From NCBI GenBank assembly GCA_944386695.1, contig CALXCB010000001.1, positions 70,620 to 134,619 of the forward strand: a stretch of 64,000 nucleotides of DNA, given 5' to 3'. The stretch is from an uncultured Clostridia bacterium. Its GTDB lineage: Bacteria; Bacillota; Clostridia; TANB77; CAG-508. Below, in pieces: positions 9,829-50,200 of the stretch. The translations under genes were made by a program, and so were the position numbers. The notes beneath the pieces were generated by a model that worked only from the letters and a program-made list of their open reading frames with translations, searched no databases and had not been told where the DNA came from. Numbering within the stretch: the stretch's first letter is position 1; each line of letters starts with the position of its first letter.

Positions 9829-11208
9829 TTAATTTTTATTTGTATTTTTTACTTTATTTATTAATTTGTATAGTTTTCCATTTTTTATAGCTATAAGTTC
9901 TTCTTTATATTTTTTATATTGTTCTATAATATTATTTAAATTTTCATTTGTTTTTCTTAAATTTTCTATTTCTGTATCTTTTGATTCAGTTTGCTCTTTA
10001 AAGTATTCTCTTTCTTTCCATATGCTATTGTTTTCTTGTTTTAATTTGTTTATCTTTTCTGATATTTTGTTTATTTCTAAATATATATCATCATAATTTA
10101 TATCAATTTTAATTCCATTTTCTTGTATCATATAAACATTATTATTAATATCTGTTTCTGCTACAATCTTATTATAATTTTCTTCTGTGATTCTTTCTAT
10201 TTCTGCTTTTGACAAACTTAGTAATTCTGTTACCTGTTCTTCTAATGTTAAACTTTCTAAATTATTACCAGAAAAATTGTCTTCTAATGCCAAGTTTATA
10301 TTCTCAGGCTTTACAATACCCTTTAAATTTTCATAACCACTTATAACAACAATCCTTTTTATTGCTATTGCTTCTAATACACATCTATTAATTCCAAGCA
10401 CAACATCATTTTCATTAACAATACTTACAACATCACTTGTTGCACCTTTATATTCTATATTGTATTTTTCTTTTTTACTATTGACTAATTCAATTAATTC
10501 ATCTACTTTATCTCCATCACCAATTATTGTAAGTTTAGTTGCAAATGCAACTTTGTCTGAATATGCACAAAACAAGTCTATTGAGTTTTTTACAGAAGTA
10601 AATTTTTCATGTGCTATTCTACTGACAATTACAAAATTTTCTGGTAAATTTTTTTGTATTTTTTTATTACATTTATATATATCAAAATTAATGCTGTTTT
10701 TTATAACTAAATATTTACTCTCATCAATTCCAAAACGTTTTTGATTATATTTTTTTACATTTTCTGATATACAAATTATTTTATAAGCATTTTTAAAAAA
10801 TAATTTTAAAGATAGTTCATATATATTAAAATTGTCTATAAACCAATCATATATCTCTGGTAATTCATCATGTATATAAACTACATATGGTACTTTTACT
10901 TTACTACATACCATTAGCATTAATGGCACACAAATTATCTTATGCACATATATCTCATCTATATTTTTTTCTTTAATAATTGTAACTATTTTGTCAACAC
11001 TTTTAGTATCAAATGTATTTTCCACTTTAAAATTATAATATATACATTCAATTCCACTTTCTTCTATTTTTTGCTTATATTCTCCTTCACCTGACAATAT
11101 ATATACATTGTTGCCTTTTCCTTTTAATGCAACTGATTGATTAAAAACTACTGTTTCTACTCCACCTGTACCTAAGTTTTCAGTACATATTAATATATTT
11201 TTTGACAT
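9829..11208 (-). CDS. GT4-type glycosyltransferase with C-terminal coiled-coil tail
   Basis: N-terminal GTGGVETVV GT-B motif. The last ~90 aa are heptad-like and Lys/Glu/Asn-rich. Confidence 0.6.
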   Translation of the reverse strand: MSKNILICTENLGTGGVETVVFNQSVALKGKGNNVYILSGEGEYKQKIEESGIECIYYNFKVENTFDTKSVDKIVTIIKEKNIDEIYVHKIICVPLMLMVCSKVKVPYVVYIHDELPEIYDWFIDNFNIYELSLKLFFKNAYKIICISENVKKYNQKRFGIDESKYLVIKNSINFDIYKCNKKIQKNLPENFVIVSRIAHEKFTSVKNSIDLFCAYSDKVAFATKLTIIGDGDKVDELIELVNSKKEKYNIEYKGATSDVVSIVNENDVVLGINRCVLEAIAIKRIVVISGYENLKGIVKPENINLALEDNFSGNNLESLTLEEQVTELLSLSKAEIERITEENYNKIVAETDINNNVYMIQENGIKIDINYDDIYLEINKISEKINKLKQENNSIWKEREYFKEQTESKDTEIENLRKTNENLNNIIEQYKKYKEELIAIKNGKLYKLINKVKNTNKN

Positions 11209-11248
11209 AATAAACTCCTTTTATCTTCAAATTTACTTTTACTTATGC

Positions 11249-13711
11249 CTATTTTTTCTTTTTTCTAATTATCTTATTAAATGTATTTCCTATTTTATTT
11301 GTATATCTCCACCTTTTGCTACTATAAATTTTTTCAAGTTCTTGTCTTAATTTTTGTTTTTCTTTTTCGTCTTCTTGTATTTTTTCATCTTTTCTTCTTA
11401 TTTGATCTAAGAAAAACTCTTTTGCCTCAACAAGTTCATTTACCCATCCATTTAAGTCTTGTATTTGTTCATAAAGTTTTTCTTGTTCATTTGAATCTAC
11501 CCCACTTGACTTTAGGGCTTCTATATATGTTGATATTTCATGGCTTTCTATTAGTTTAAAAAAATTATCCTTATTTTTTGTATATCTAGTAGATGTTACT
11601 AGCATTGGATTACCTTTACTAATGTCTTCAAGTGACACTTTTTCATATTTTATATTTGCTTTTAGTTCTTCAAAAATGTCTTTACCTTTTGCAGAGTTAA
11701 TTACAATTGCCGAAACACCTTTATCGTCATCTATTTCTGGTAAAGTACTTTCTATCCCCCAGAAATCTCCAATAATTATATCTGCTGTACTTTTTTCACC
11801 ATACTTCATCTGGCAATTGTAACAACATTCTCTTAAAAAGTAATCTTTCAAATATCCACTCATATATATGTCTTTTGAAGCTGGAACTACTTCTTTTTTT
11901 CCATTGTCATACTCATATTCGATGTTATAATTGTGCCATCCTAATTGTTTATTTCTAAAATTAATCTTCTTCAATTTACTTGAATTTTTTTTCTCTTTTT
12001 CTTCTATATATTTTTTAAAGATTTCTGGACTTGGTACTCCATGACATATAATTGATACACAGGTTAGATTGTTATAATCTTTATTTAAGTATGATCTTAG
12101 TCCTTCAATTTGGCAAGGTGTTCCTGTAAATAAAACTTGTTTTTGGTCATCTAAATCTTGTTTTACATTTTTTAATGTATGCCCAATTTCACTTTGTACA
12201 TATTTAGAACCCATTATTTTATATAATTCTTTTTCATTATCTATTCTAATATTTTTTGCTTGCTTTTCTTCAAGAGCTACCCCATAGACTACACCTTTCT
12301 TTTTTAATGTTGTTTTTGCAATCAATGATACCATTCCTCCTGATGAGCTTTTTATTCTATCTTTTTCCTCTAAATTAAATGCTGCATAATATTCTGGAGC
12401 GTTATATTCATTTTTATAATATTTATTTGAAGGGCAAACTTTTTTACATAAATTACATCCTATGCATTTTTCTTTGTTTATTTTGGTATACTCAAATCCA
12501 TCTTTACTTTTTATTATTTCTATTGCATCATTTGGACAAATGTTTAAACATGCCATACAGCCTGTACATTTATACTTATCTGTTATATATTTTTCGTCTA
12601 AATACTCTATTTTTTCTAATAAGGCATTTATGAGATTATTGGATTTTTCTTGTATTGAAGGTATTTTTTCTTGTAAAATTTTAATTATTTGCTTTTCATT
12701 TTCTTGTATATATTTAAATTTATTAAGTAATAATTCTGGTGTCATTTTGTCTACTGGTATAACAAAATTTTCATAATCTCCAAACAAGTCTAAAGCTATT
12801 CCTTTTGATTTTACACTATAGCCTATTACAAGTGTTGGAACAAGACTTGAATATGCTGCTATACTTGCATGAGTTCTTGCTGCAATAAAAAAACTACAAT
12901 TTGAAATTATAAATTTTAATTCCTCACAATCATAAATTTTTTCATTTAGTAATTCTATTCTTGGTTCTTGCTTGTAAATATCTTTTATCATTTTTAAGGA
13001 GTCTAAGTCATTATTTCCTTCAATATATACATGTGGTATTAGTGCAATATTAAGGTCTGTCTCTTTTAATATATAATTTATTAATTCTTTTAAACTTTCT
13101 AAAATATTATTTTTATTATCTGTAAATTTAGAAATTAATGGACTTACATTTATTCCTATTACTTTTTTTCCTTTTTTAAAAATATTAGGTAATTTTACTT
13201 CTTTTTTTCCTAAAGAAAATGCTGTATCTGGTAATAATAATACATGCTCCTTGTCTACATATTGGGTTACTGCTTTATAACTTAAAGATTCTCTTACTAC
13301 TATTACATCATATGTTCTTAGATCTTTTATCATTTCGTCTGATTCAATTTCTTCATAAAGTGATGCACACCATAATACATTTTTTTTGTTTTTAGCTTTT
13401 ATGTTTTTATTTATTTCATAAAGCCATTTTGGCTCTCCATAACAGTAATTGTCTCCCCCTACAGACAAACATATATCTGTAATTTCTTCTTTTAAAGCGT
13501 CATTATTTTCAAAAGATTGTTTTACATATTTTGTTATTATATTATTATAGTATTTTGAGTCATATTCTATGTCATTTGTTGCAAGAGTTATATTACCTTC
13601 ACAGCTATTTTTTATTTTATGGATAGTTGTGCTAACTATTGCTTCACAACCTCTATTTAAAAATGAACCTTCTCCATATAATAAAAAATTTAATTTTTTC
13701 TTTTCTTTCAT
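11249..13711 (-). CDS. Fusion protein: polysaccharide pyruvyltransferase domain, then 2x[4Fe-4S] / F420-hydrogenase-beta-like domain, then coiled-coil tail
   Basis: N-terminal ~370 aa are pyruvyltransferase-like (GEGSFLNRGCEAI..ARTHASIAA). The middle has CTGCMACLNICP and CIGCNLCKKVCP ferredoxin motifs and GTPCQIEGL..ICHGVPSP, strongly paralogous to 50733..51905. Coiled-coil C-terminus. Confidence 0.75.
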   Translation of the reverse strand: MKEKKKLNFLLYGEGSFLNRGCEAIVSTTIHKIKNSCEGNITLATNDIEYDSKYYNNIITKYVKQSFENNDALKEEITDICLSVGGDNYCYGEPKWLYEINKNIKAKNKKNVLWCASLYEEIESDEMIKDLRTYDVIVVRESLSYKAVTQYVDKEHVLLLPDTAFSLGKKEVKLPNIFKKGKKVIGINVSPLISKFTDNKNNILESLKELINYILKETDLNIALIPHVYIEGNNDLDSLKMIKDIYKQEPRIELLNEKIYDCEELKFIISNCSFFIAARTHASIAAYSSLVPTLVIGYSVKSKGIALDLFGDYENFVIPVDKMTPELLLNKFKYIQENEKQIIKILQEKIPSIQEKSNNLINALLEKIEYLDEKYITDKYKCTGCMACLNICPNDAIEIIKSKDGFEYTKINKEKCIGCNLCKKVCPSNKYYKNEYNAPEYYAAFNLEEKDRIKSSSGGMVSLIAKTTLKKKGVVYGVALEEKQAKNIRIDNEKELYKIMGSKYVQSEIGHTLKNVKQDLDDQKQVLFTGTPCQIEGLRSYLNKDYNNLTCVSIICHGVPSPEIFKKYIEEKEKKNSSKLKKINFRNKQLGWHNYNIEYEYDNGKKEVVPASKDIYMSGYLKDYFLRECCYNCQMKYGEKSTADIIIGDFWGIESTLPEIDDDKGVSAIVINSAKGKDIFEELKANIKYEKVSLEDISKGNPMLVTSTRYTKNKDNFFKLIESHEISTYIEALKSSGVDSNEQEKLYEQIQDLNGWVNELVEAKEFFLDQIRRKDEKIQEDEKEKQKLRQELEKIYSSKRWRYTNKIGNTFNKIIRKKKK

Positions 13712-13728
13712 TCGGAAAATTCCTCCTA

Positions 13729-14733
13729 TTAGTTTTTATATATTTGTTTTATTTTTTGCCTAATGTAATTTATATTCCAGTTTCTTAATTTATACTTTAT
13801 ATGTTCTTTACTAAAATGTCTAAACCTATATTTTAGATTTTCTTTACTAAAAAATCTAAGCTTATATTTTATATGTTCTTTACTAAAGTTCCTAAATTTA
13901 TACTTAAAAAATTCTTTTTCTATTTTATCATATTTTTCTTTTACAATATTAAGATACTGCTTTTTTTCTTCTTTATCTTCAACAATTTTATTAATTGTTT
14001 TGTTTAAAATTTTTCTAAAATTTCGTTGTTTTAATAAAAATGCTAACTCTCCTTGCTTTTTATGTGAATGACTATTTTCTCTTACCAAATAATTGTATAC
14101 TACTTTATTTATATATCCTGTTTTACTTTTATAAACTGCTGGTAAAATCATTTGCCAATTTTGCCCTGCTTTGTTTACATATATATCTCTTCCCTTGTTT
14201 ACTTTAAAAAATTGTTCTGTTCTAATCATTATGACTCCACAAAAACAGTATATATCTTCTTCTTTTATATAGTTTAAAAATAAATCTGTATTTTCAGGAT
14301 TTTTACTTTTTCTTATTTCTATTATATCTTTTGTGGCATTATCTTTTCTAAATGCTACTTCTCCTCTTACCGCGTTATAATCAGGATTTTCTTTTAAAAA
14401 ATCTACCATCATTTCAATTGAGTTTTCTTCGAAATAGTCATCTGAATCTGGCCATATTAAAAATTCTCCATCTACTAATTTTACTCCTTTATTAAGTGCT
14501 TTAGCTATTCCTCCATTTTTTTGTTTCACATATTTTAGTTTTATATTTTTATTTTTTAAAATTTCTCTATATTTTTCTACTACTTTTTCTGTATTATCTG
14601 TTGATCCATCATTTATACATATGAATTCCATATATGAATAAGTTTGATTTACAATAGAATTTAATAAATTTGCTATATATTTTTCTCCATTATAACATGG
14701 TGTCATAATTGTTACTAAGTTTTTCTTCACCAT
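13729..14733 (-). CDS. GT2 glycosyltransferase with a repetitive C-terminal tail
   Basis: IMTPCYNGEKYI..INDGSTD..PDSDD motifs. C-terminus carries 12-aa repeats of the type F-S-K-E-H-I-K-Y-K-L-R. Confidence 0.8.
   Translation of the reverse strand: MVKKNLVTIMTPCYNGEKYIANLLNSIVNQTYSYMEFICINDGSTDNTEKVVEKYREILKNKNIKLKYVKQKNGGIAKALNKGVKLVDGEFLIWPDSDDYFEENSIEMMVDFLKENPDYNAVRGEVAFRKDNATKDIIEIRKSKNPENTDLFLNYIKEEDIYCFCGVIMIRTEQFFKVNKGRDIYVNKAGQNWQMILPAVYKSKTGYINKVVYNYLVRENSHSHKKQGELAFLLKQRNFRKILNKTINKIVEDKEEKKQYLNIVKEKYDKIEKEFFKYKFRNFSKEHIKYKLRFFSKENLKYRFRHFSKEHIKYKLRNWNINYIRQKIKQIYKN
13770..13925 (-). repeat. About 3.5 tandem copies of a 36-nt (12-codon) repeat inside the GT2 3' end
   Basis: Peptide units FKYKFRNFSKEH / IKYKLRFFSKEN / LKYRFRHFSKEH / IKYKLRNWNINY. 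The corresponding DNA units are visible at 13781-13920. Confidence 0.7.
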
Positions 14734-14850
14734 ATACTCCTTTTCGTATGTTTTTTACATTTTTTTTATTTTTCAATAATATATTTTCTAATTTTTATCT
14801 TTTCAAATTCTATTTTTTTGTTGTTTACTCATAACTTTGCTACATTTGTT

Positions 14851-14879
14851 ATTTTACTATATAAACCCAAAATTAGCAA
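14851..14879 (-). promoter_or_regulatory. Putative sigma-A promoter of the glycopolymer operon
   Basis: Minus strand reads TTGCTA, 17 nt, TAAAAT, about 115 nt upstream of the ATG at 14733. Confidence 0.4.
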
Positions 14880-14899
14880 GTGTAATTTAAAACAAAATT

Positions 14900-14940
14900 A
14901 GACCGGCTCTTTTGGAATAAAAGTTCCAAAAAACCGGTCT
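14900..14940 (-). terminator. GC-core hairpin, likely intrinsic terminator
   Basis: agaccggctcttttggaa ... ttccaaaaaaccggtct forms an imperfect stem, followed by a T-rich tract on the minus strand. Confidence 0.5.
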
Positions 14941-15169
14941 TGATAAGTTTTATTAAGTTTACATTGCATAATATTTTTACATATTGTTAAATTCTTATTG
15001 TGAACTGCTGTTTGCTGTAAGGCTGACCATAGGTTTCACACCTATGACCAACCTTCGTATAAACTAGTATGTACCTTTTTGTCTAGCAATCACTATGTTG
15101 ATATGGCTCAAACTCCCATCTCCCTGTTCTTGCTTGGGTGTCAGGATACAGTGGTTCAGGATACGCACA

Positions 15170-15706
15170 TTACTTTATGTAAAGCGCAGAGCGACAACCA
15201 CCGTAGCTGAAGCTGTAGGTCGGACTGTAGTAGGTGCGGTAGCTGGCTGGATAGTCGCTGCCATTGAAGTTGCAGTAGCCACCACGTAAGACCCTGTATT
15301 TGGTAGAGTAGGCCTCTAGGGTCCAGTCCATTCTGTTTCCTGCTAGGTCATAGATATTATTTGCCTTTGTGTACTCTGCACTTCCCGTTGGAATCTTCGT
15401 ACCCGAACCTTCGTTCTTCGTACTCGTTCCTCCACTTGTTGTTCTATACTCGAATGTTGCATCTGTATAATTTCCCCAGTCACTTGAATCATCATTTATA
15501 TCACTCTCTGTTATTTCTCTCGTCCCTCCTTCTCCATCTTGGATTTGTGCTCCTGTTTCTAATAACCATTGTAATGTTTCGTCCCATAAGCTTCCCCAGA
15601 TCATTCCGGTTTCTATGTTTTCTTTCTCTCCTTCCAAATTTTTACTTAGCTCATACATTTCATACCATGTTGCATAATTTATATCTTCATTCTTCATTAC
15701 CCCCAA
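15170..15706 (-). CDS. FGE-sulfatase / C-type-lectin-fold protein fragment with a DGR-variable-region-like C-terminus. Possibly a 5'-truncated remnant.
   Basis: WYEMYELSKNL..IWGSLWDETLQWL..NIYDLAGNRMDWTLE..YRVLRGGY matches the C-terminal half of the FGE/CLec fold. GC is far above the flanks. The start is TTG or a poorly spaced ATG with no good RBS. Confidence 0.55.
   Translation of the reverse strand: MGVMKNEDINYATWYEMYELSKNLEGEKENIETGMIWGSLWDETLQWLLETGAQIQDGEGGTREITESDINDDSSDWGNYTDATFEYRTTSGGTSTKNEGSGTKIPTGSAEYTKANNIYDLAGNRMDWTLEAYSTKYRVLRGGYCNFNGSDYPASYRTYYSPTYSFSYGGCRSALYIK
15191..15280 (-). other. DGR variable-region-like segment (NNC/NNY codon run)
   Basis: In 30 consecutive codons, 28 end in a pyrimidine and 22 end in C (TAC TGC AAC TTC AAT GGC AGC GAC TAT ... 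TAC AGC TTC AGC TAC GGT GGT TGT CGC). Followed by the GC-rich GGTGGTTGTCGCTCTGCGC. Confidence 0.5.
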
Positions 15707-15873
15707 AAAAATTACTCATTTATTATAACTTCTAGTTTTTTTACATATTCTTTATAATATTATCATATTTTATTTGTATAGTTTTATTATATATTAACTA
15801 TTTTCATTTTTCAATAGATTTGCTAGATTTGTAATACTTGTAATAAAACTGTAACTTTTTTGTAATATAGCTA

Positions 15874-15918
15874 AAAAACAGTTCTCGTTGAGCATTTGCC
15901 CAAGTGAGAACTGTTTTT
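15874..15918 (-). terminator. groEL intrinsic terminator
   Basis: aaaaacagttctc ... gagaactgttttt hairpin immediately downstream of the groEL stop. Confidence 0.75.
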
Positions 15919-15931
15919 AATTTTATATATA

Positions 15932-17575
<1,644 letters not shown>

Positions 17576-47286: not shown

Positions 47287-50200
47287 TTATGTTACACCTC
47301 TTTCTAAAACAATTAGTCTCATTCTGATTAAGTCTTTAATACTTATACTTCTTCCATCTATATTACAATCAGCTGCTATTAACTCTAATTCATCTAAGTT
47401 ATTTCTTAATAATAAATATTTCCTTAGTTTTACAATATCTTTTATGTTTACGTCTCCATCTTTATTAATATCTCCATTTACAATTAAAGTTAATTCTTCA
47501 CCTGCTGATGTTCGTAATATATCTCCTGTTGCTATTATGTCATTTTCAGCTAATGGATTACCATTTCTTACGATCTCATAGTCTAATCCCATGTCTATTT
47601 TTTGATCAAATTCTGATAGTGTTGTGTTATTTTTTATATTTATAATATATGATCCTTTTCTTATGTATTCTTCACTTATATCCTCCATTATTCTAAATTC
47701 TACTGTAACTTCATTTCCAGCTTTATCATTTACTACTAGTTTATAGAAGCCTTCTTCTGTAAGTTCTGTGCCTGGAACATATCCTTCTTCTAAATATGAA
47801 TTTAAATATAGTTTTACTTCATTTAGATTTTCATCTGTAACCATTGGTATTGCTTTATCTATATATTGTTTATTTTCTTCTACTCCTGTAATTACAGGTG
47901 GTGTTTTGTCTATATTGTTTACTGTTGCAGTTAAGTTTAATGATGTTCCTTTTATTTTTATTTCAAATGTAAATTCTCCATTTTGGTTAAATGTATATGT
48001 ATTTTGATTTGAATTATTAAGTACTTCTACATCAAAGTTTGAATTTATTGTTGCTATTACGTCTTGATTTGTTAAGTCTGTTGCTGAATAGCTAATTGTT
48101 GCTGGATTTCTAGAAATATAAAATGTTGTTTCTGTTTGATTGCTTGCTTTGTCTATTGCTACTATTTTATAATTTCCATCTTCTGAAATTGTAGTATTTG
48201 TTTGATAATTTTGCACCTCGTTATTGTCTTTGTATAGTTTTACTTCTTGTAAGTTTTCATCTTGTATTTGTGGTGTTATACTATCTAAATATAGTTTGTC
48301 ATTTTCTACACCAGTAACTGTAGGCGCTGCTTTATCTATATTGCTTACTGTGGCTGTTTTTGTAAATGCTCGTCCTTTTATTGTGTATTCAAATGTAAAA
48401 CTTCCATTTTGATTAAATGTGTATGTTTTACTATTTGAATTATTTGTTACTGTAATATTTGCATTTGTTTTTAATGTTGCTGTTACATCTTGATTTGTAT
48501 AGTCTATTGTTGAATATTCAATTTCTACAGGGTTATTTGCAATATATTCATCTACATATAAATTTGCAAATTCTGTTGCCCAGTTAGCAAGTAATTTGCT
48601 GTGTAAGTTTTTACTTACAATTAATCCTGTTTTTATGTCATTTTCTTCTTCTAATCCATTTATATAATTTGCTTTATCATAGAAATCTTGGCTAAATTCT
48701 AAGATTTTAGTTGGATATACCATTTCTATATCACTATCATTTATTAAGTTTCCTGCATTTGTTATTGAGTTAAGTGTATCTGTTAAATCTACATTTCTTG
48801 TTTTTGCACTTAATGTTACTAAGTCTTCAAATGAGTCCCCTATATCGTCCAACATATCTAGCATTGAACTTAATTTTACATATTCTACTTGTAAGTTTCC
48901 TGATTTATATGCTTGAATTATTGCATTTCCTAAATTGTAGTGTTGCTCCATTAGATTGATTGCTGTTGTTTCGTCTAGTGTTGAATTGCTTGATATATCT
49001 TGTATCTTTTGTTTTAGATTGTCTATTGATGCTTGTAATCCTGATACTTTTGCAATTTCTCCTGAGAAATTTGATGTGAATTCATCATATTTCTGAGTAA
49101 CTGTATTTGATATTGCTTGGTAAAAATAGTGATTTCCAACATTATATAAATATACTGGTGATGTTGTTATTTGGATATTTCCACTCTCATCTGGTGTTAT
49201 ATCTTTTCCATATATGTCCTTTGCTGTCATTTCTCCTAATGTAAAGTCATACGTGTTGTCTGTGTTATCTGACCATGCTATTATTAGTGGCTTTCCATCT
49301 TTGTCATATACATGTGCTTCTAAACCGTCTTCTATGTCTAGTGTTCCTATGTATTCTGAACCGTTGGTGTTTTGGTAGTAGTTTTTCATTGAATAGTATG
49401 ATGGTTTTGGGGTGTAGTCGTTGTTGACTAAGCCATAATTGTTTTCTTTATCATTCTCATCAGTTCCTGTGTTCCAAAAATTATATATAGATGAAAAATC
49501 CACTCCATATTTATCCATTAAAACCGTCTGCTGTATTAACTTATATGCTTGCATTTCTTCTGTTATTCGAGAATATACCGAAATTCCATATTCTGTTGCA
49601 TAATTCCTTAAAAAACCTCCATATTGATTTAATAACTCTTTATATCTACTTAACATTTTATTAAGATTTGGATTTTGTTCTTTTCCATCTGACCCATCAT
49701 ATGGGTGATATGAATAAGCATTAGCAGCTTTATATCCACTATTTCTTGTGAGTTTATCAAAAAATTCCACCGTACTTACAGCATTAGAATTAGTATCTCC
49801 TATTGCAGCTAAAGCTCCTGCTACAATATACGGATTATTTTGATTTTCTTTTGATAATCTATCACAAATACCAACTATATTAGAGTAATATTTTAATTCT
49901 TCTTCTGTCTTATAAGAAAAATTAGGCTCGTTCAAAACTTCATAATTTTTTATTTGAGGATAACGACTAATCGTTTCATTTACAAAAGTTGTAAATTTTT
50001 CAGTCATATCATCAGTTGTAATTTTGCTAGGGAATCCATTAAATTCTAATAAAATCTTTATATCGTTATCTGTAGCCATTTTTATCCATTCATCATAATA
50101 ATAAAAATTATATGTTCCATCATTTCTTACAACACTCGAATAATATAAATCTGCACGTATGTATTGTACCCCCAAATTTTTTAAAGAACGTAAACTAATA

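Follow-up and report, generated by a model that had tools for sequence, protein, structure and literature searches.

The window, that is, the whole stretch of 64,000 nucleotides that was analysed, carries between the 3′ end of groEL and a glycosyltransferase gene (13729-14733, minus strand) an island of ~0.7 kb at whose ends GC content changes steeply. It amounts to 0.44-0.51 at 15000-15400 and to 0.19-0.26 in the flanks, which bears out the preliminary description of this DNA, where the fragment was called GC-richer than its surroundings. The island holds an ORF of 175 codons, unbroken in all alleles seen, that belongs to a family of DGR targets. The features of the locus are the following.

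15170 to 15697, minus strand: truncated target ORF, 175 aa from the ATG at 15697 (178 aa from the TTG at 15706)
15180 to 15315, minus strand: variable region (VR) homologous to the template repeats (TRs) of the family, with an NNY/NNC codon run at 15191-15280 inside it
15180 to 15199, minus strand: IMH-like 3′ end of the TR/VR homology, GGTTGTCGCTCTGCGCTTTA, from family alignments
15490 to 15692, minus strand: mosaic 5′ segment, 14% divergent from the allele on contig L004, the rest differing by <1%
15786 to 15814, minus strand: promoter-like site TTGAAA-17-TATAAT (11/12), ~90 nt 5′ of the ATG
14995 to 15169, minus strand: GC-rich non-coding island tail, its first ~80 nt resembling the family's post-VR spacer
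15020 to 15056: 16-bp hairpin in the island tail (z = -5.3)
14900 to 14940, minus strand: terminator-like hairpin with U-run (-22.9 kcal/mol, z = -5.75)

The run of NNC codons at the C-terminus, which had drawn attention to the ORF, is confirmed by counting. Codons at 15191-15280 are NNY in 28 of 30 cases and NNC in 22, as against 51 and 20 of the 142 remaining codons of the ORF (Fisher p = 3e-10); in groEL and the two adjacent glycan-synthesis genes, NNC codons make up 3-7%. Outside the VR, the gene body has a GC3 of 0.33 (0.08-0.14 in groEL, groES and the two glycan genes), and the composition of the island is therefore foreign to a degree that amino-acid content does not explain. These properties could be those of an ordinary fragment of the FGE/SUMF family, whose tail is rich in Tyr, Ser and Asn and owes its NNC codons to amino-acid composition or foreign codon usage, with no DGR involved. 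The foreign composition of the whole island and the lack of a Pfam match above threshold for the window protein agree with such an origin. The enrichment in NNC codons is, however, specific to the VR within one and the same ORF, and the TRs of relatives described below contradict it further, which makes an ordinary fragment extremely unlikely.

Upstream of the ORF, GGGGG stands just 2 nt 5′ of the ATG, a poor Shine-Dalgarno spacing by direct reading of the sequence. Downstream, the likeness of the island tail to the family spacer lies in a repeated GTATCCTGA motif, and the terminator-like hairpin is situated in AT-rich host DNA with the island on one side and the glycosyltransferase gene on the other. 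A structured RNA in the GC-rich tail was considered and dismissed, as there is no credible Rfam match and the stability of the whole region is ordinary (z = -0.85), one strong hairpin being present. At 15932-15990, the 3′ end of groEL encodes a Cys/His-containing tail (21 residues), a variant of the usual GGM tail.

A family of membrane-anchored lectin-fold proteins

Among 5.8 billion proteins, 126 relatives of the window protein are found, nearly all of them from gut metagenomes and some with a match to PF03781 (FGE-sulfatase). Contigs of up to 139.6 kb encode a protein identical to that of the window. In species-representative genomes more than 541 loci encode relatives, all in MAGs of uncultured gut Clostridia whose hosts include humans, rabbits, chickens and sheep; the best relative, from Clostridium sp. 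CAG:354, is 61% identical. In several MAGs, numerous copies are spread over different contigs (at least nine in one MAG). Seven full-length copies stand head-to-tail at ~1.5 kb spacing on a single MAG contig (L024:9700-19500, CALXVT010000010.1). An origin from a phage element, one of the sources proposed earlier, is rejected, since a search of 50,697 phage records reveals no relative of the window protein and family members are located among housekeeping genes.

The assignment of an FGE/C-type-lectin fold in the preliminary description is upheld at the level of the family. The family profile matches SUMF2 (1y4j, E = 1.9e-4) as well as TvpA (2y3c), a DGR target from Treponema. The window fragment itself has nothing significant in Pfam or NCBIfam: PF03781 gives no match above threshold, and with the EgtB model the fragment reaches 15.6 bits where the cut-off is 360. 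For an AlphaFold (AF2) model of the 260-aa homologue P0002 (pLDDT 72.5), the top Foldseek matches are all FGE-type C-type-lectin folds (PorK, pFGE, FGE, TvpA, PvdO, Mtd and EgtB), with modest scores (TM 0.37-0.42). With the C-terminal domain of formylglycine-generating enzyme, SUMF2 and EgtB (PF03781), the family has in common the fold and the signature YDLxGNVxEWT...RVxRGG...R...P...G(C/F)R. As in other DGR targets, this likeness extends to the structural scaffold only, and there is no sign of enzyme function.

Full-length members have 413-632 aa. They begin with a basic N-terminus and one hydrophobic helix (signal anchor), followed by a VPVPxGY...GFVIYEG module and an acidic/Asn-rich linker; then come YVWVPV, GGFYIGRYE and the lectin domain with the VR, which occupies the last ~45 codons, at the 3′ end of the ORF and within the fold. 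Family members are thus N-terminally membrane-anchored surface proteins with a C-terminal FGE/CLec domain ending in a VR of ~136 nt. Ordinary conservation of the tail residues among homologues would have spoken for purifying selection, as was pointed out at the outset. An alignment of 33 homologues displays a conserved body (IPTGSAEYTKANNIYDLAGNVYDWTLEA) and a tail that is hypervariable at discrete positions, set in the fixed scaffold RGG..G..PA..R..P..S..GCR.ALYIK.

DGR cassettes, templates and the variable region

Next to these relatives lie the genes of a DGR. An RT of ~336 aa with the DGR hallmark IGNYTSQ...YMDD adjoins the target in 14 of the 76 genome loci fetched, and two ENA contigs (L086 and L087) provide two more partial RT 3′ ends beside homologues. 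The RT matches RVT_1 (E = 2.5e-20), and the accompanying Avd matches PF22296 (E = 3e-18) and NF033474 (E = 1e-19). Relatives at 45-61% identity (L005, L006, L007, L009, L016, L026 and others) are found 0.3-2 kb from the RT, Avd and a MutS-like ORF, the order in L005 being target, MutS_I ORF, Avd, RT, TR and second target. The MutS-like ORF of ~135 aa, which matches MutS domain I (E = 1e-7), lies between target and Avd (L005:10582-10989) and has equivalents in L006, L007, L009, L016, L026, L039, L057, L058, L060, L066 and L070. Family TRs are AAC-rich, 129-141 nt long, and differ from their own VR nearly always at adenines: in L066 at 25 of 54 A and 0 of 80 other bases, in L026 at 25 of 52 A and one other base. 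The adenine-specific mismatches beside a DGR-type RT and Avd support the earlier reading of the window ORF as a DGR target.

Targets may also be remote from the cassette. In the MAG CANRSN01, the sole TR stands beside the RT and matches VRs on other contigs, with mismatches at 20 of 51 A plus one C in one case and at 19 of 53 A plus one C in another; three more copies have many non-adenine mismatches to this TR. Remote targeting therefore operates in the family, with decaying copies alongside live ones. A gradient from live to decayed targets within one MAG is seen with the TR at L088:10400-10560 and the VRs of L013, L014, L018, L033, L035, L044 and L046, some of which have adenine-only mismatches and others many mismatches at non-adenine positions.

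Several cassettes depart from the complete arrangement. At L003:10976-11130 and L028:~10630-10790, a TR is situated 180-230 nt 3′ of the target, and the nearest 10 kb are free of RT, Avd and MutS-like ORF. Both are TR-VR pairs separated from their RT; in L003 the mismatches number 23 of 55 A, 2 C and 2 G, with none at T. The RT genes at L043:4197-5199 and L058:11899-12898 are each recovered by tblastn as two pieces in differing frames, which could mean that the retroelement has decayed or that the assembly is faulty. A related MutS-like/Avd/RT/TR cassette is present in a complete circular Clostridia MAG of 1.57 Mb (L129, OZ007016.1:424853-445852), its target being more distant (25-28% identity).

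The window VR carries the marks of this mutagenesis. TRs of L005, L066 and L070 align to window 15315-15180/15207, and more than half of the adenines of such a heterologous TR are mismatched (28 of 55 for L005), T, G and C being mismatched also, as is expected across species. Among the closest VRs (the window and the ENA contigs L081, L082 and L083), variable columns fall on family-TR adenines in 37 of 56 cases and elsewhere in 12 of 98 (odds ratio 14, p = 8e-12). These columns, together with the adenine-only TR/VR mismatches of the flanking cassettes, contradict an ordinary FGE/SUMF fragment. Compared with the clade majority, the window VR deviates at 2 of 72 strictly non-adenine columns and at 10 of 56 adenine columns; its sequence therefore bears a DGR imprint on an undamaged scaffold. 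On the basis of this comparison with heterologous TRs, the window VR itself appears to have been written once by a DGR.

At its 3′ end, GGTTGTCGCTCTGCGCTTTA aligns with the end of the TR/VR homology in the family and continues into a near-palindrome, CTTTACATAAAG, across the last codons and the stop. An IMH-like stretch had been recognized beforehand and is indeed present, but it is placed in the last codons of the ORF (15180-15199) and not downstream of it. In ~99 family copies the final codons L-Y-I-K-stop (window 15173-15187) use CTT for 57% of Leu and AAG for 65% of Lys, whereas the figures for host genes are 14% and 11%; this choice yields the near-palindrome CTTTAyATAAAG exactly at the end of the TR/VR homology. 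This near-palindrome may be a DNA-level target-site element; as a hairpin it is only modest (z = -1.4).

The machinery that would have written the window VR is found neither nearby nor in the collections searched, whose genomes do not include the species. Within the 64 kb there is no RT, Avd, MutS-like ORF or TR (best tblastn E-value 0.36, no RT motif), in line with what had been stated for the vicinity of the ORF. The VR has no repeat in the window, where family TRs match the VR alone (15180-15315), and no TR remnant is found just past the island, the place where L003 has its TR ~230 nt after the target. The cognate TR, of ~136 nt and AAC-rich, would read CGTGGTGGC-AAC-TAC-AAC-AAC-AAT-GGC-AGC-AAC-AAT-CCAGCCAGC-AAC-CGC-AAC-AAC-AAC-AAT-CCGACC... 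A degenerate pattern, consisting of the window VR with N wherever any family TR has A, gives 0 matches in genome, metagenome and viral contig collections, so that the template repeat envisaged in the preliminary description did not come to light there. A TR-peptide profile run against the set of 5.8 billion proteins matches 842 TR-encoded small ORFs. The closest of these, L086 and L087, were rejected as cognate because they disagree with the window clade at positions other than adenine. The GTDB representative nearest to the neighbouring 820-aa protein (L084, 64% identity) has no synteny, with neither groEL nor a target upstream, and hence offers no empty-site comparison.

Truncation, mosaicism and stasis of the window copy

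The window copy is a fragment, consisting of the last 175 of about 580 residues (the last ~30%). Membrane anchor, linker and domain start (first strands) are absent, as are the nearly invariant R65/Y66/E67/G69 of the GGYYIGRYE core motif, which maps 5′ of the fragment start. The preliminary description had the N-terminal half of the FGE domain missing: truncation at the N-terminus is indeed observed, but the loss is far greater, anchor and linker included. When copies are compared for the signal-anchor helix, the VPVPxGY module, YVWVPV and GGFYIGRYE upstream of the NNIYDLAG/VR part, most mid-contig family copies in GTDB MAGs have all four landmarks, whereas the window copy has only the last part despite 48 kb of upstream contig. 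A retrotransposition-like 5′ truncation as a general trait of dispersed copies was rejected, because most mid-contig copies are full-length; short family calls are mostly contig ends or starts at an internal conserved Met. In another strain the same locus (L004) has an ORF of 277 aa that is anchor-less as well, its homology to the window beginning at ~15690.

The abrupt change of GC at both ends of the island, and the fact that related contigs frequently stop directly after the VR, would fit an assembly chimera in which a contig of a higher-GC organism is fused into an AT-rich genome. An independent metagenome contig (L001) is nevertheless 100% identical to window 14813-15955, covering both junctions, and L004 has in common with the window the 3′ junction together with 5 kb of genes downstream of it. 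Since both junctions are reproduced in an independent assembly, the island is not a product of misassembly, and a chimera can practically be discounted. Three ENA contigs of ONAT22-1 (L081, L082 and L083) all stop 5-45 nt past the target stop codon; breaks at the VR or 3′ end are what a multi-copy or heterogeneous region would be expected to cause.

The 5′ end of the fragment is mosaic. The window and L004 differ at 29 sites in 15490-15700 (14%), at a single site in 15000-15489 and by ~0.6% across 10196-14999, and the junction with AT-rich host DNA is located at ~15690-15700. The divergent piece resembles the paralogue P0003, which therefore argues for recombination with another family copy; sequence comparison suggests that the mosaic segment arose by gene conversion or recombination with such a copy. 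Exchange of this kind raises the idea that truncated RT-less copies donate sequence to expressed paralogues or accept it from them, gene conversion being added to DGR mutagenesis. Copy-to-copy recombination has occurred here, ~200 nt at the 5′ end being paralogue-like and the rest <1% divergent, and the family is multi-copy, with the nine or more copies of one MAG and the seven in tandem in L024. The mosaic is, however, a single event with no sign of directionality or recurrence, and copies in other genomes are mostly full-length, hence without an arrangement of cassettes and expression site; a role of the fragment as such a donor or acceptor is highly improbable. That the fragment is a maintained silent cassette of a two-layer variation system, storing old VR variants and swapping segments with expressed paralogues, is likewise improbable. 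If it were so, the mosaic 5′ end (15490-15690) would be the trace of exchange by gene conversion, and small-genome uncultured gut Clostridia would keep dozens of dispersed copies of DGR-diversified surface lectins.

An actively retrohomed VR is expected to differ between strains at many adenine-templated sites. This is not the case at the window locus, where the test for hypervariation between strains is negative on assembled contigs. The 90% cluster of the window protein (P0001) comprises five sequences, found on at least 12 contigs. In these assembled consensus sequences the VR is identical save for position 15255, where GAC and GTC (Asp/Val, A/T) alternate at a TR-adenine position. The L004 allele has its one difference in 15000-15489 although the flanks differ by 0.6%; the VR has therefore not been rewritten since the strains split.

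Two possibilities had been raised at the start, a target still diversified from a distance and a decayed remnant. Under the first, as developed here, an RT, Avd and TR elsewhere in the genome would occasionally rewrite the VR, and the ORF would make a small soluble lectin-like protein. The unbroken ORF with its promoter-like site, the undamaged VR scaffold (2 of 72 deviations) and the intact IMH-like end mean that the window copy could still be a competent target. Remote VRs matching one TR exist in a related MAG, the literature records remote targets at distances above 100 kb (PMC5758913), and the sole polymorphism (15255) sits on a TR-adenine position. Nevertheless, one retrohoming event would alter many sites together, whereas apart from this site the VR does not vary among at least 12 contigs, nor between alleles with 0.6% flank divergence. 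The fragment is moreover devoid of membrane anchor and conserved core motif, its Shine-Dalgarno spacing is poor, and no cognate TR is found in three collections or among the 842 TR-encoded ORFs. A live remote target is on this evidence rather unlikely.

The remnant is favoured over it because the gene is fragmentary and the VR fixed across strains. Window 14995-15700 is probably a 5′-truncated, currently non-diversifying relic of a chromosomal DGR target gene, and the fragment is most likely non-functional. A DGR in the same genome, composed of a MutS-like ORF, Avd, RT and AAC-rich TR, would rewrite the ~136-nt VRs of the family: the template would be reverse-transcribed with errors at adenines and the cDNA would take the place of the VR, a rewriting that could reach copies distant from the RT. 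The window copy would have retained the imprint, with NNC codons where the template has AAC and the scaffold intact. It would later have lost its 5′ two-thirds, that is, membrane anchor, linker and first domain strands, had its 5′ end patched from a paralogue, and then stayed unchanged between strains, no longer diversified.

Comparison with known systems

In homology, fold and scaffold the locus is a DGR target; its gene is not intact and its VR is not hypervariable at present. It is a decayed member of an already-known kind. A close parallel is the DGR of Treponema denticola, whose target TvpA (2y3c) has the same FGE-type C-type-lectin fold with a C-terminal VR, and in which one cellular RT/TR serves several targets far from the cassette, as in the window family. 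Remote DGR targets, those of T. denticola included, have been described (PMC5758913). TvpA is a lipoprotein, while the window family instead has an N-terminal signal-anchor helix, the VPVPxGY module and the acidic linker, and sequence similarity between them does not extend beyond the last ~60 residues (E = 0.042). Compared with the Treponema system, the window copy is a fragment and its cognate TR was not found in the collections searched.

Bordetella phage BPP-1 (Mtd, Avd, TR, Brt) has in common with the window family an AAC-rich TR, adenine-specific changes, a VR at the 3′ end of a gene of CLec fold, and Avd. The homologues of the family RT include RTs of Bordetella phages, and Mtd is one of the fold matches. 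The window family differs in being cellular and chromosomal, multi-copy and equipped with an additional MutS-like ORF, its RT being at most ~40% identical to any phage RT. This last ORF recalls the MSL (MutS-like) DGRs, for example in Legionella, in which a small MutS_I ORF accompanies Avd and RT as in the cassettes of the homologues; the accessory class of MSL with Avd was described by Wu et al. 2018 (PMC5758913). In contrast to these, the host is an uncultured AT-rich gut Clostridia bacterium, the target architecture differs, and the window is without these genes.

By itself the window locus, a relic that resembles a pseudogene and was left by a known mechanism, matters little. It is of value as a pointer to a large and essentially unannotated family of membrane-anchored lectin-fold surface proteins (the more than 541 loci mentioned above), diversified in trans by chromosomal DGRs with a MutS-like accessory gene. 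The family displays a full life cycle, from active cassette and remote targets to TR-only pair, decaying copies and truncated relic. Large metagenomic surveys of DGRs state that remote targets are missed (PMC8144416), and solitary VRs like that of the window are therefore systematically uncounted.

The window contains further repeats. Three tandem units of 36 nt at 13783-13917, in the 3′ end of the glycosyltransferase gene, code for a repeated ...FSKEHIKYKLR... peptide. Two pairs of long direct repeats, at 47807-48532 (300 nt, 72% identity, 426 nt apart) and at 1296-2495 (229 nt, 71% identity, separated by 971 nt), probably represent paralogous gene segments.
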